A stretch of DNA of 64,000 nt, taken from NCBI GenBank assembly GCA_963737155.1, contig CAVTRN010000002.1, positions 2,976,001 to 3,040,000 of the forward strand. Reading direction: 5' to 3'. The position numbers and the translations under genes are program-made. Source of the stretch: Nitrospirota bacterium (GTDB lineage Bacteria > Nitrospirota > UBA9217). The notes under the pieces are model-generated. The model had not been told where the DNA came from, did not search any database, and saw nothing but the letters and a program-made list of their open reading frames with translations. Position 1 is the first letter of the stretch. Each line of letters begins with the position of its first letter. Of this stretch, positions 9,613 through 45,761 are shown in pieces.

Positions 9613-9690
9613 TGGCGTCCCCAACCGGATTCGAACCGGTGTTATCGCCGTGAAAGGGCGGTGTCCTGGGCCGGACTAGACGATGGGGAC
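9613..9690 (-). tRNA. tRNA-Glu (TTC)
   Basis: GTCCCCATCGTCTAG...CT-TTC-AC...GGTTCGAATCC...GGGGACGCCA cloverleaf with CCA end. Confidence 0.97.
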
Positions 9691-9795: not shown

Positions 9796-9871
9796 TGGTG
9801 AGCCGGCTGGGATTCGAACCCAGGACACCCGCCTTAAAAGGGCGGTGCTCTACCTACTGAGCTACCGGCCC
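9796..9871 (-). tRNA. tRNA-Lys (TTT)
   Basis: GGGCCGGTAGCTCAG...CCGCC-CT-TTT-AA-GGCGG...GGTTCGAATCC...CACCA. Confidence 0.97.
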
Positions 9872-42413: not shown

Positions 42414-43943
42414 CTACAGCATCGCGAGTGCATTCTTAAGCGCCTCCGCCTTCTGGAGCGTCTCCCGGTATTCCGCCGCGGGGTCGGAGTCGGCAACGAT
42501 CCCGGCACCGACCTGCAGGTACGCAGTTCCGTCCTTTATGACAAAGGTCCTGATGATGATATTCATATCCATATCGCCATCATTCGAAAAATAACCGATG
42601 GAGCCGGTATAAAGTCCGCGCGATACCGGTTCAAGTTCGTCGATGATCTCCATACACCGCACCTTAGGCACTCCAGTTATCGTACCGCCAGGGAATACAG
42701 AACGTACAAGGTCGAAAGCATCCTTCCCCGGCGCAAGGTCACCACGAACATTGGAAACAATATGAATCACATGGGAATAGTCCTCGACGGCCATGATTTC
42801 ATCGACCACAATCGACCCGTAAGAGCACACTTTTCCAAGATCATTCCGCTCTAGATCCAGAAGCATTATATGCTCCGCGCGCTCCTTCTCACTTGTCAGA
42901 AGCTCCGCGGAGAGCTCCCGCATTTCCGACTGATCGCTCCCTCTGCGGCGGGTGCCCGCGATCGGCCGCGTATCGGCAACCCCTTCGCGCAACCGAATAA
43001 GCCGCTCCGGCGAGGAACTCGCAAGTTGGAGATCACCAAAATCAAGAAAAGCGGCGAATGGTGACGGGTTGACGGCGCGCAGTATTTTGTACAAGCTGAA
43101 TGAGTCGGCCCCGTCGATAAACGCAGAGAACCGCTGGGACAAATTGGCCTGATAAATATCTCCTGCCGATATGTACTCTTTGCACCGGATGACCATGGCC
43201 TCAAACTCGGTCTGGCTCAAACCGGCTGAAAGCTCGAACTCTTTCACAGGCTCTCTTGCATTCGGTAGCGGGGCGCTATCACGATGTGAAGCCGATTCCA
43301 GCCTGACTACGGTTGTCCGCAATCTTTCCCCAGCCTCATTAAAAAGCCGGTCCCACTGGTTTGGCTCAGGCCGTCTGAATCCCAGTTCCTGCTCACGCGC
43401 CCCGGGGTTCACGATCACCCAGGCCTTGTCCAGAATATGGTCAAAAGCAACCACGAGATCGACAAAAATGAAGCAGGCTTCGGGAAAATCAACATCGACT
43501 GCTGCCCGGCGAGGCAGCTTTTCAAACTGGCGGGAGAAATCGTAAGAAAAGTATCCAACAGCGCCACCGGTAAAAGGGGGCAATCCGGCAATTCGGCTGG
43601 TCCTATAATTATTAAGCAACTCACGGAGTTTTTCCAGCGGCTTACGCTTCGTCATTGCCCGCCTGCCAAATTTCCTCTCGAGAGTTTTCGGTAGAATAAG
43701 TTCCACCGTTTCGCCGCGGGATTTAAAAATTAGATAAGGATCGGCAGTTACGAACGAATATCTTCCGATCTTCTCGTTAACGCGTGCGCTTTCGAGCAGC
43801 ACGGGACAACCGTCCTGACGCAGAGCTTCGAAGGCAGTTAACGGTGAAAGTCCAGGTATGCAGATTTCCGATGTGAGGGGCATGATAACGTCATGCCGGA
43901 GCTGCTCGAAAAATTCTTTTTTTGTGGGGTTTAGAATATACAT
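42414..43943 (-). CDS. Chorismate-binding enzyme: anthranilate synthase component I or PabB family
   Basis: LLESA, GGAVGYFSYD, YQANLSQR, SSPERL, PIAGT, EHIMLLDLERND, GAGIVADS. Confidence 0.9.
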   Translation of the reverse strand: MYILNPTKKEFFEQLRHDVIMPLTSEICIPGLSPLTAFEALRQDGCPVLLESARVNEKIGRYSFVTADPYLIFKSRGETVELILPKTLERKFGRRAMTKRKPLEKLRELLNNYRTSRIAGLPPFTGGAVGYFSYDFSRQFEKLPRRAAVDVDFPEACFIFVDLVVAFDHILDKAWVIVNPGAREQELGFRRPEPNQWDRLFNEAGERLRTTVVRLESASHRDSAPLPNAREPVKEFELSAGLSQTEFEAMVIRCKEYISAGDIYQANLSQRFSAFIDGADSFSLYKILRAVNPSPFAAFLDFGDLQLASSSPERLIRLREGVADTRPIAGTRRRGSDQSEMRELSAELLTSEKERAEHIMLLDLERNDLGKVCSYGSIVVDEIMAVEDYSHVIHIVSNVRGDLAPGKDAFDLVRSVFPGGTITGVPKVRCMEIIDELEPVSRGLYTGSIGYFSNDGDMDMNIIIRTFVIKDGTAYLQVGAGIVADSDPAAEYRETLQKAEALKNALAML

Positions 43944-44007
43944 ACATAACCTACGAAATTGTAAAGATAATTCGTCAGTTGGTCAAGACAATTTTAGTAA
44001 AATAATT

Positions 44008-44080
44008 CTGCAACCGAGCGATAAATATGGTATAGTATCATTAGATTAACGCATTAAGAAGTGCATTAACGTTCTTTGAA
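44008..44080 (+). promoter_or_regulatory. Promoter (extended -10) and boxA-like element upstream of the candidate ncRNA
   Basis: CTGCAA, 17 nt, TATAGT (44031-44036) preceded by TGn; GTTCTTTGAA at 44071-44080. Confidence 0.55.
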
Positions 44081-44097
44081 GATACGGCAGTTTGCAT

Positions 44098-44418
44098 GGC
44101 GTTGCCGAACCAGCACCGTTAGGTGTACAGATGATAACCCGTTATAAAGGGGATCAAGCACCGGAAATGATGGAGTGCCGAAGCCGGGAAGAGGACAGCA
44201 AGTTGAGCGGTCAGTCTCCCGATTGATACACAGGCATCCACAGGACGGAAGAGCCGAAACCCCTAAGTTGCGTGCGTACACGGGAAGAGGCGAGGAGGCC
44301 TTTCACACACGACGCTTCACAGGGTCTGCAAAGCGGAGCCGCAGAAGCAGGATGTACTTCCCGAAGTAGACACAGCTCAGCGGAATATCAAGACCGGTTC
44401 GGGGGCAACGCCTTTTTT
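44098..44418 (+). ncRNA. Candidate structured GGA-rich ncRNA (CsrB/Rsm-like)
   Basis: 5' GGCGTTGCCGAACC pairs with 3' GGTTC-ggg-GGCAACGCC, followed by T6; 12 GGA motifs, several in hairpin loops; no credible ORF. Confidence 0.65.
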
Positions 44419-44643
44419 ATTGCCTTTTACGTTTCAACCAACCAGAAAGGTTCTTCTCTTGCTGAAATTTATCAATACATCCCTTCCTCACTGTAATTGC
44501 AGCACTCTCCATAATTTCTTAAGACCCTTAGTAAAATAATGCATATCCCATCGATCTACCCCTCGACAAAAAGCAAATTTTATTTTAAACTGATCCCGTT
44601 TCCCGAATTCGCGATCTGATTACGTTTCAAAAGGGAGCTGGCC

Positions 44644-45036
44644 ATGAACCATGCCATTGACGTACATATCTATTATGAGGATACCGATTGCGGCGGTGTG
44701 GTGTACTATGCCAACTATCTGCGCTACATGGAACGGGCACGAACCGAATATCTAGCGTCGCGAGGGTTCTCGGTAAAAAAACTCATGGACGAGGGAACAA
44801 TCTTCATGGTGCTCCGGGTCGAGATCGACTATAAATCCCCTGCGCGGTATAGCGACACCATCGAAATCGAGACAGGGGTAAGAGACGTGACCCGAGTGAC
44901 CATGATGTTTGAGCATACCATGCGAGAAAAGATCTCGGGCCGGGTCTTTGTGGAATGCCGCGCAAAAGTTGTATATGTCGACAAGCACGGCAAGCCGAAA
45001 CGCCTAGCCGAAGATTTCGTGGAAAAAATGAAATGA
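44644..45036 (+). CDS. ybgC: YbgC/FadM family acyl-CoA thioesterase
   Basis: IYYEDTDCGGVVYYANYLRYMERAR motif. Confidence 0.9.
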   Translation: MNHAIDVHIYYEDTDCGGVVYYANYLRYMERARTEYLASRGFSVKKLMDEGTIFMVLRVEIDYKSPARYSDTIEIETGVRDVTRVTMMFEHTMREKISGRVFVECRAKVVYVDKHGKPKRLAEDFVEKMK

Positions 45037-45761
45037 AGGCTGTTACCCACGACCAAATCGCGCTTCGCGGTGCAGGCACAGTGAACATCACACAGCCTGA
45101 AAAAGGCGCCCGCTTCACGCTGGACAGCCTCCTTCTCGCAGATTTCTGCCGCATCAAAGCCCGGGACACCATTCTAGAACCAGGATCGGGTACAGGAATC
45201 ATATCCCTCCTTCTTGCAAAAAAGTTTCCCTGCGCCTCCATTGTTTCCGTCGAGGCGCAGACCTCCGTTGCTGATCTTTGCTCCCGAAATATATCGGACA
45301 ACGGCCTCGATGACCACATTAAACTGCTCAACCAGGACATCCGGGAGATGCAACACATCGTGAAACCCGCCTCCTTCGATGCCATTGTTGCTAATCCACC
45401 CTTCACGCGGACAGGAACCGGCAGACAAAGCCCCATTCCGGAAAGGCTGGCGTCACGTCATGACCGGATGGGGACAATACAGGCTTGGCTGGATCTCCGG
45501 ATTTTTCTCAGGAACACAGGTCGCTATTTCCTCGTCTTCCCTGCGGGCCGAGCAGCGGAAATTCTGTCTCTGCTGCACGAGGAAAAGTTGGAGCCTAAGC
45601 GTGTGCGGTTCGTCCATCCCCGGCAAAATAAGTCTGCTTCCCTTATCCTAATCGAAGCCATAAAATCAGCCGCCGCCGGCCTCGAAGTCCTACCACCGCT
45701 CATTGTACATGAAGCCAGAGGCTATTCCCAGGAGATGCTGCAAATCTACGACCTTTCTTAA
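45033..45761 (+). CDS. tRNA1(Val) A37 N6-methyltransferase-like SAM methyltransferase
   Basis: QPEKGARFTLDSLLLA, EPGSGTG and ANPPF motifs. Confidence 0.85.
   Translation: MKAVTHDQIALRGAGTVNITQPEKGARFTLDSLLLADFCRIKARDTILEPGSGTGIISLLLAKKFPCASIVSVEAQTSVADLCSRNISDNGLDDHIKLLNQDIREMQHIVKPASFDAIVANPPFTRTGTGRQSPIPERLASRHDRMGTIQAWLDLRIFLRNTGRYFLVFPAGRAAEILSLLHEEKLEPKRVRFVHPRQNKSASLILIEAIKSAAAGLEVLPPLIVHEARGYSQEMLQIYDLS

Follow-up and report, generated by a model that had tools for sequence, protein, structure and literature searches.

The question raised by positions 44098-44418 of the DNA considered here, a 64-kb window (64 000 nucleotides in all) of contig CAVTRN010000002.1 from a member of the Nitrospirota, is what might be encoded by an interval that lies next to a divergent trpE/pabB-like gene, folds extensively and holds no convincing reading frame. 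An initial annotation had proposed either an RNA sponge for the regulator CsrA or a new class of large RNA. We conclude that 44098-44418 (+ strand) is a stand-alone gene for a previously undescribed structured non-coding RNA (ncRNA) of about 315 nt, and that its novelty lies at the level of the RNA family. The gene is conserved, shows covariation and is specific to one bacterial family; it has a conserved promoter, a conserved leader motif and a terminator-like end, belongs to no known RNA family and has paralogues. The full account that we put forward, an independent gene whose product is a stable, trans-acting structured ncRNA of about 315 nt, representing an undescribed RNA family confined, as searched, to one family of the Nitrospirota, seems to us rather probable. 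Throughout, coordinates are positions in the window unless a contig (C1 or C2) is named, and 'the family' is that one Nitrospirota family; the source genome (G000) is 4.84 Mb in two contigs and is 100 % complete.

The mature body of the RNA, which we call type 1, occupies 44098..44412 (+), as delimited by two alignments (A1 and A2), covariation, covariance-model matches and contigs from RNA libraries. Its 315 nt comprise 99 G, 90 A, 80 C and 46 T, and it is thus rich in purine and poor in U; the source genome carries a single copy. Folded as a single sequence the element has a minimum free energy (MFE) of -116.7 kcal/mol, with z = -3.13 relative to shuffles. The absence of a credible open reading frame (ORF), asserted in the initial annotation, holds when relatives are compared: the element contains no conserved ORF, and a small-protein gene is ruled out, since the region of a 64-aa ORF is open and in frame in just four of 53 distinct relatives. 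Other ORFs around the element are short.

The 4227 models of Rfam 15 were searched at gathering thresholds over the whole window and at E<=10 over 43900-44650. At gathering thresholds nothing matched the element, two tRNAs being the sole matches in the window, and at E<=10 there were two matches, both chance-like, with no CsrB, CsrC, RsmX, RsmY or RsmZ model among those on the element. No match recurred consistently when nine divergent homologous loci were searched; one of them gave a CsrC match (L034:1274-1313 +), which lies outside the element and on the opposite strand. Neither a T-box or other amino-acid riboswitch nor any known ribozyme model was matched by the element or by these nine loci. 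A divergent RNase P RNA, tmRNA, signal recognition particle (SRP) RNA or 6S RNA is rejected, since RNase P RNA, tmRNA, small SRP RNA and 6S RNA are each located elsewhere in the source genome above their family cut-offs and their models have no match on the element; signatures of the first three had already been reported missing. The lack of an Rfam match supports the novelty that the initial annotation had allowed for. No paper on such an RNA was found in the literature searched, which did not cover the motif lists in the supplements of RNA-discovery papers, and the main text of PMC8632094 contains no mention of Nitrospir, trpE or boxA.

Homologues of the element were compared in two alignments. 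A1 consists of 25 sequences gathered by BLAST with no pattern imposed, and A2 is a sequence-only MAFFT alignment of 74 rows, 53 of them distinct, from which a consensus fold was derived with RNAalifold; 49 of the 74 rows of A2 were gathered by a pattern that fixes parts of two helices, P1 and P2, so that the invariance of these can be read from A1 only. The multi-helix fold, a P1-P2-P3 core bearing two long arms, is real and is backed by covariation. Over the 76 predicted pairs and 53 distinct sequences of A2, 90.1 % of cells are paired, compared with 31.7-43.0 % when the partners are slid by 1-3 columns. Changes on both sides are seen at 42 of the 76 pairs against a shuffle mean of 28.6 (0 of 500 shuffles attain the 42 observed), and the covariation score is 0.241 against 0.042-0.084 in the slid controls, so that the covariation proposed as a check in the initial annotation proves to be strong. 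For the 3' half and for P1 and P3 the support was tested on the MAFFT alignment alone, the covariance model R1 (see below) covering the 5' domain. G-U and U-G alternatives are frequent, such as UG in 15 cases at pair 5-358 (UA/UG) and GU in 23 at pair 107-123 (GU/GC/AU), and because they are compatible only with the + strand we take this to be the RNA strand.

The RNA is closed by P1, a 14-bp stem whose 5' strand GGCGTTGCCGAACC (44098-44111, +) pairs with GGTTC-GGG-GGCAACGCC at 44396-44412 (+), with a 3-nt bulge at 44401-44403, much as the initial annotation had drawn it. The first 9 bp of P1 are invariant in sequence, with G1-G7, C9 and G10 the same in all 25 sequences of A1, and pair 11-349 is AU in 38, GC in 11 and UA in two sequences of A2. 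P2, the hairpin CACC-GTTA-GGTG at 44114-44125 (+), likewise has an invariant stem. P3 is a long-range helix that encloses both long arms: CCGTT at 44139-44143 (+) pairs with AGCGG at 44379-44383 (helix 4, 91 % paired), and its 5' strand region reaches back to 44133 (44133-44143, +) through an extension, GATA 44133-44136 with TATC 44386-44389, which comes from the single-sequence MFE fold only and whose register varies among genera. The 5' arm (44149-44263, +) is a long irregular hairpin made up of helices 5-10 of the covariation model (44149-51/44261-63, 44157-59/44253-55, 44161-64/44245-48, 44172-73/44238-39, 44178-79/44233-34 and 44182-99/44207-24) and capped by a conserved apical loop, AAGTTGA (AAGUUGA in the RNA), at 44200-44206; in helix 10, 11 of the 15 pairs have changes on both sides. 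The 3' arm (44267-44376, +) comprises helices 11-15, including 44267-74/44369-76, 44281-83/44360-62, 44314-18/44344-48 and 44322-29/44333-40, and in helix 11 both sides change at seven of the eight pairs. A hairpin with the stem AGGC/GCCT at 44288-44301 (+) is a lineage-specific insertion into this arm, found in only part of the genus and absent from most genera.

Directly abutting P1 is a U-tract, the T6 at 44413-44418 (+) that the initial annotation had also pointed out, and a T-run stands directly 3' of P1 in all 25 sequences of A1. P1 and the U-tract together form an intrinsic-terminator-like end, with the G+C-rich stem and adjoining U-tract by which such terminators are recognized in sequence, and the stem is unusual in being long-range, with about 285 nt enclosed. 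A consensus scan returned just a weak local hairpin at 44401-44415.

Present in every member of the family that was searched, the RNA is restricted to that family as far as searched. By BLAST the element is found in 13 of the 14 other genomes of the genus and in 22 of the 24 other genomes of the family, and 16 genomes of other families gave one weak, chance-like match (L035), located in coding or unrelated sequence. R1, a covariance model of the 5' domain only (169 positions, 34 pairs), was run on 151 Nitrospirota genomes and matches the source genome and all 27 others of the family (28/28), with E-values of 1e-31 to 1e-52. Among the 123 genomes from 21 other families it has no credible match; there are four marginal ones (E 1e-4 to 5e-3), of which the two that were read (L116 and L117) lie in coding or unrelated sequence, the other two being in G153 and G108. 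A strict two-anchor pattern built from invariant columns, was applied to 185,579 species, each represented by one genome; it yielded 47 loci (49 copies), and all 47 are in entries titled Nitrospirota, Nitrospirae, Nitrospiria or Nitrospiraceae. A looser pattern, applied to 401 Nitrospirota genomes, matched 58 of 63 family members and 28 of 337 genomes outside the family, the latter compared with nine genomes for a reversed-pattern control. The rows listed for these outside matches lack, by eye, the P2 complement and other landmarks, and several represent one conserved coding stretch. Distant homologues beyond recognition may exist outside the family.

These comparisons bear directly on the proposal with which the initial annotation led, that the RNA is a CsrB/RsmZ-like sponge that titrates CsrA/RsmA through GGA motifs in its loops. 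The observations behind it are accurate: the source copy has 12 GGA triplets on the + strand against three on the - strand, and both CAGGACG and CAGGATG occur in the element. The partner, however, is missing. CsrA (PF02599) has no match in the 100 %-complete source genome, in a search that was positive for Escherichia coli, Bacillus subtilis and Thermotoga maritima, and FliW (PF02623) has none in that genome either. Nor are the triplets enriched beyond composition, since dinucleotide shuffles of the element contain 8.87±2.10 of them and 10.6 % of shuffles attain 12, while the 53 distinct relatives contain between three and 12, with a mean of 7.9 where composition predicts 7.7. Only one of the 12 (at 44382, in 46 of 53) exceeds 85 % conservation among the relatives, and most coincide with paired positions within helices. 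As to the hairpins in which the triplets were thought to be displayed, GCAC/GTGC, GGC/GCC and, in the register then proposed, CTGC/GCAG fall outside the consensus structure, and the fourth, AGGC/GCCT, is real and is the insertion at 44288-44301 confined to part of the genus. With the absence of a CsrB, CsrC or Rsm match on the element, we reject the sponge and give it next to no chance of being correct. The fallback offered with it, a new large ncRNA class whose closing stem and boxA hint at antitermination and processing, has fared well: it agrees with the Rfam result, the covariation, the family-wide conservation, a boxA core like that of the 16S rRNA leader and library contigs that begin at the first base of P1, some of them with a leader of about 45-55 nt.

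The signals upstream of the RNA are conserved as well. An extended -10 element, TGGTATAGT, lies at 44028-44036 (+), with a predicted start at about 44043-44046, and a boxA-like motif, GTTCTTTGAAG, lies at 44071-44081 (+) within the resulting 5' leader of about 50 nt (44044-44097, +), which would be removed from the mature RNA; boxA is here a putative site for NusB and NusE (S10). The boxA consensus for gamma-proteobacteria is GYTCTTTAANA (PMC5725501). Both elements had been noticed in the initial annotation, and each is conserved in 51 of 52 distinct upstream regions: TGNTANNNT with a median hexamer start of -63 relative to base 1 of the RNA, and NNTCTTTNNNN at a median of -28, the commonest forms of the latter being GGTCTTTGAAA (12) and GATCTTTGAAA (11). 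The sole exception is the same for both, one second copy (L027). The boxA-like motif stands 17-59 nt (median 28) past the conserved extended -10, and its inclusion in the leader would follow from the predicted start.

In sequence, the boxA core of the RNA gene is the same as that of the family's own 16S leaders. The single 16S gene of the source genome carries GGTCTTTGAAAACTAAATAGG in its leader, just past a promoter, and the core GGTCTTTGAAAAC occurs in the 16S leaders of all five readable family genomes (G000, G001, G090, G143 and G024), at -123 to -127 in the last four; a further genome gave no 16S match. The pattern TCTTT[GA]A was not found within 150 nt upstream of the RNase P RNA, tmRNA, SRP RNA or 6S RNA genes of the source genome, which encodes NusB. 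We note separately that six copies of an insertion-sequence-like repeat in the source genome (C1:1126724, 1199394 and 1494267 on the + strand; 1178719, 477882 and 20782 on the - strand) carry a boxA-like GATCTTTGAAAAC, placed about 120 nt in from one end and ahead of a long ORF that starts MYLRRR and looks transposase-like.

A second conserved RNA, type 2, which came to light through the looser pattern, provides a natural comparison. With a length of about 300 nt and the GGCGUUGC...GCAACGCC termini of type 1, it aligns over its full length with that RNA, and landmarks are common to both. Its promoter is arranged differently, in that 7-8 nt separate the end of its -10 element from the same GGCG start, with neither a leader nor a boxA between them, and a separate hairpin terminator follows about 20 nt downstream. 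Because the type-2 promoter thus independently marks the same G, we regard G1 as the natural 5' end. BLAST finds type 2 in 15 of 64 family genomes and eight of 19 genera. The copy in the source genome (C2:1770522-1770819, equivalent to L154:4523-4815) has an nhmmer E-value of 5.5e-71 and the termini GGCGTTGC...GCAACGCC; unlike other type-2 copies it has no P2 hairpin, and it lies in a gap of about 1.5 kb free of ORFs of at least 90 aa, where its neighbours are uninformative. The type-2 profile also matches the type-1 element (E 4.9e-4).

Further copies are found in tandem in some genomes (L054, L074 and G157). In G157 (L114:1501-2092, L129:1-330) a type-1 copy that has no U-tract comes first and is succeeded, about 80 nt further on, by a divergent copy with a covarying P1 (GGCGUUGCAGG / CCUGCAACGCC) and a canonical terminator. 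G015:C90 (L153) has three head-to-tail copies, at about 3001, 3487 and 3888 on the - strand, two of them type 1 and one type-2-like. Tandem copies such as these may be co-transcribed and then processed. A third, more divergent paralogue (L128:2008-2312, or G006:C51:10207-10511; 42 bits with R1) keeps the common termini and has a separate terminator and an extended -10 element of its own, without a boxA.

RNA libraries offer a view of the molecule itself. Twenty-four metatranscriptome runs from 15 studies share a few words with the stretch, and four of these runs, each from a different study (two freshwater, one peat and one soil), were compared with it at a likeness of at least 80 %. In all four, contigs of relatives that are 80-99 % alike cover 44094-44415. 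Contigs starting at 44096-44099 occur in every run, and many start at 44098±2; one contig of 327 nt runs from 44099 to 44402 and then into an Illumina adapter. Upstream of 44098 there are 44-56 unlike letters in some contigs, and in one run the nearest 30 of these include a GATCTTTC... string that resembles the boxA of some relatives. Summed k-mer depth reaches 12,806 (X5), 3,095 (X8), 404 (X1) and 238 (X3), a poor measure of expression that has no comparison genes beside it. No contig in the four runs lies on 43950-44069 or 44430-44650, which is no sign of silence, since conservation in the relatives that gave the contigs does not extend to the flanks. Together these data hint at an RNA-sized molecule with its 5' end at G1 (44098), accompanied by a minor leader-bearing form.

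The soil run (X8) contains two contigs in which the 3' end of the element is linked to its 5' start, one passing from 44415 to 44098 with two letters between and the other from 44368 to 44098 with 50, and these could reflect a circular RNA, tandem genes, template switching or an assembly cycle. They are one reason to consider a catalytic or self-processing RNA, possibly circularized, to which may be added the large multi-domain fold with its invariant core nucleotides and the presence of a gene for RtcB in the source genome. Such junctions were, however, seen in one of the four runs, among the matches listed, and template switching by reverse transcriptase on an abundant RNA or assembly could have produced them; known ribozyme models do not match, and in type 2 it is the promoter, and not cleavage, that fixes the mature 5' end. 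We consider a catalytic or self-processing RNA decidedly unlikely.

The surroundings of the gene suggest two other roles, both of which depend on a particular neighbour. Upstream and divergent is the trpE/pabB-like gene (42414..43943, -; Pfam Chorismate_bind and Anth_synt_I_N), and it is the only conserved neighbour of the RNA gene: 70 of 72 element copies have a TrpE-like match upstream, on the other strand, its near end 139-209 nt from the first base of the RNA in about 66 of them. A promoter-like site for trpE, TTGACC-17-TACAAT (43958..43986, -), matches the consensus at 10 of 12 positions in a scan, and its -35 hexamer sits in a conserved motif, GGTCAAGAYAAWT, present upstream of many relatives. 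With the two predicted promoters back to back and about 150 bp apart, the RNA might be a regulator tied to tryptophan synthesis that acts on trpE by promoter interference, by base-pairing or by sensing tryptophan or tRNA-Trp. Several observations speak against this. An SMC-like gene beside trpE is likewise syntenic, so that the linkage may be one of inherited gene order, and second copies and type-2 paralogues lie away from trpE. In 12 genomes the RNA has no excess complementarity to the trpE translation-initiation region (median z 0.24, by RNAduplex without accessibility, a crude test), and the predicted sites differ between genomes; a regulator that pairs with trpE as an antisense RNA is rejected on this ground. 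There is also the lack of a T-box or amino-acid riboswitch match. Overall we hold a tie to tryptophan synthesis to be improbable. As a separate point, the trpE promoter-like site ends only about 15 nt before the ATG of the ORF at 43943, which leaves either a very short 5' untranslated region or a true start further downstream.

On the other side, 225 nt beyond the U-tract and on the same strand, is a 4HBT thioesterase gene (44644..45036, +; Pfam), and a large structured element with a terminator-like end in this position could act in cis, as a 5' leader or riboswitch whose P1/U-tract terminator governs the gene that follows. That gene, however, is not a conserved one. A thioesterase and a methyltransferase follow the element in 28 of 72 copies, and elsewhere the neighbours are unrelated and often on the other strand, among them TPR/DUF6627, MBL-fold, multihaem cytochrome, outer-membrane protein, GlgC-like, radical SAM and ABC transporter genes. 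The contigs from RNA libraries are RNA-sized and end at the element, and the leaderless paralogue has its own terminator within its 1.5-kb gene-free gap. With no conserved downstream gene or pathway to control, a cis-acting leader is rejected as very improbable indeed. As listed, there is an overlap of 82 nt between the ORFs of the thioesterase (44644-45036) and the methyltransferase (44955-45761), and the start of the latter is probably further downstream. The two tRNA genes of the window are far away, at 9616-9690 and 9799-9871 (-).

Returning to the stand-alone, trans-acting RNA that we favour, its synthesis might proceed as follows. From the extended -10 promoter (44028-44036), transcription would begin about 50 nt ahead of the mature RNA, and the boxA of the leader would load NusB/S10 and other Nus factors, which would give the untranslated transcript resistance to Rho. 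The boxA/Nus complex could also keep the 5' end close to the polymerase and in this way aid formation of the long-range P1, and a Nus-assisted helix between leader and trailer has been proposed as a model for rRNA (PMC10250234, PMC8632103). The RNA folds into P1 closing its termini, the P2 hairpin and the long-range P3 closing the two long arms, as covariation shows, and transcription would end at the U-tract abutting P1. The leader would then be cut exactly at G44098, the first base of P1, as the contig starts and the promoter of the leaderless paralogue suggest.

As to what the RNA does, our best guess, which falls slightly short of an even chance, is that it is a protein-binding scaffold or a decoy. 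A protein-binding role is the most likely one because the invariant P1-P2-P3 core is common to paralogues whose arms differ, and because the paralogues have different promoters. Such paralogy is typical of protein-binding regulatory RNAs, as in CsrB/C, RsmY/Z, 6S-1/6S-2 and GlmY/Z. The sequence-invariant core would be the recognition module of the scaffold, and conserved arm loops (AAGUUGA) would make further contacts. A bolder possibility, which we think unlikely, is that type 1 and the leaderless paralogue are the RNA subunit of an unrecognized family-specific ribonucleoprotein (RNP) or ribozyme, type 1 being made in the manner of rRNA, with boxA/Nus loading to tether the 5' end to the polymerase, so that P1 completes the fold and triggers termination; the mature RNA is perhaps circular in vivo, at which the junction contigs of X8 hint.

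A number of points weigh against this account of synthesis and function. The protein-binding role is deduced from the pattern of conservation and from paralogy, and we infer the ends, the binding of NusB/NusE and the existence of a partner; no linked gene for an RNA-binding protein is found among the neighbouring genes checked. The first 9 bp of P1 and the stem of P2 never vary, so that neither has support from covariation. The library contigs come from relatives, mostly less than 95 % alike, and not from the source organism; DNA may be present in RNA libraries, and neither the starts and ends of a transcript nor its strand or level can be proved from assembled contigs. As an 11-mer the boxA-like motif is not rare: the genome has 51 matches to a related pattern, against an estimated expectation of about 18, and six of the 51 are in copies of one insertion sequence. 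Because the motif alone is so common, the case for boxA rests on its fixed position and on its identity with the rRNA-leader core, and at flanking positions the ncRNA version differs from that of rRNA, reading for example GTTCTTTGAAG here and GATCTTTCTAA in some relatives. Finally, type 2 and the second copy L027 have no boxA, and it must therefore be dispensable for making this kind of RNA.

Comparison with known systems helps to place the RNA. It resembles CsrB, CsrC and RsmX-Y-Z in being a stand-alone, terminator-ended and abundant ncRNA of a few hundred nucleotides that has paralogues with different promoters, but here there is no CsrA or FliW, no set of repeated conserved GGA loops and no Rfam match, and the fold is a single compact multi-helix structure closed by its termini rather than a string of similar hairpins. 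Like 6S RNA, RNase P RNA, tmRNA and SRP RNA it is universal in its clade, mostly single-copy, paired at its termini and covered by RNA-library contigs, although the genome has all four of these elsewhere, none of their models matches the element, and the RNA described here is limited to one bacterial family. OLE, GOLLD, ROOL, raiA and HEARO are large orphan bacterial ncRNAs, all of them Rfam families, and with these it shares its size, an intricate fold, restriction to a lineage, an orphan function and recognition through covariation; it differs from them in having no Rfam match and in its P1-P2-P3 core with two arms, its boxA leader and its leaderless paralogue.

The leader invites comparison of a different kind. 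Non-rRNA units preceded by boxA include suhB, other genes and CRISPR arrays, and as in these the boxA here stands outside rRNA and ahead of an untranslated transcript that would otherwise be open to Rho. The survey from which the gamma-proteobacterial consensus was derived states that non-coding RNAs lay outside its scope (PMC5725501). The rRNA operon leader is a further parallel, with the same boxA core as in the family's 16S leaders, placed shortly past a promoter and upstream of a long-range helix that joins the flanks of the product, and with a leader that is then removed, as would also happen here (for parts of the background on rRNA leaders and Nus antitermination see PMC5725501, PMC10250234, PMC8632103 and PMC4807359). 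It is unlike the present gene in that the product here is an orphan RNA of 315 nt whose long-range helix is kept in the mature RNA with the U-tract adjoining, and in that binding of Nus factors is putative.

The RNA adds a well-supported class to the short list of large, intricately folded orphan bacterial RNAs, and does so from a poorly studied and mostly uncultured branch of the Nitrospirota of soil, peat and freshwater. No report of a boxA ahead of a structured ncRNA gene was found in the literature searched, and to that extent the present gene is the first for a structured ncRNA to have a boxA leader of the rRNA type. It offers a natural system of 370 nt, as against an operon of 5 kb, in which to ask whether Nus factors chaperone long-range helices and whether such a helix can terminate transcription, and the leaderless paralogue is a built-in comparison for the boxA question. 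If a protein partner or a catalytic activity proves true, the RNA would define a new RNP. Within the family it behaves in a housekeeping-like manner, being universal, syntenic and represented by deep RNA-library contigs.

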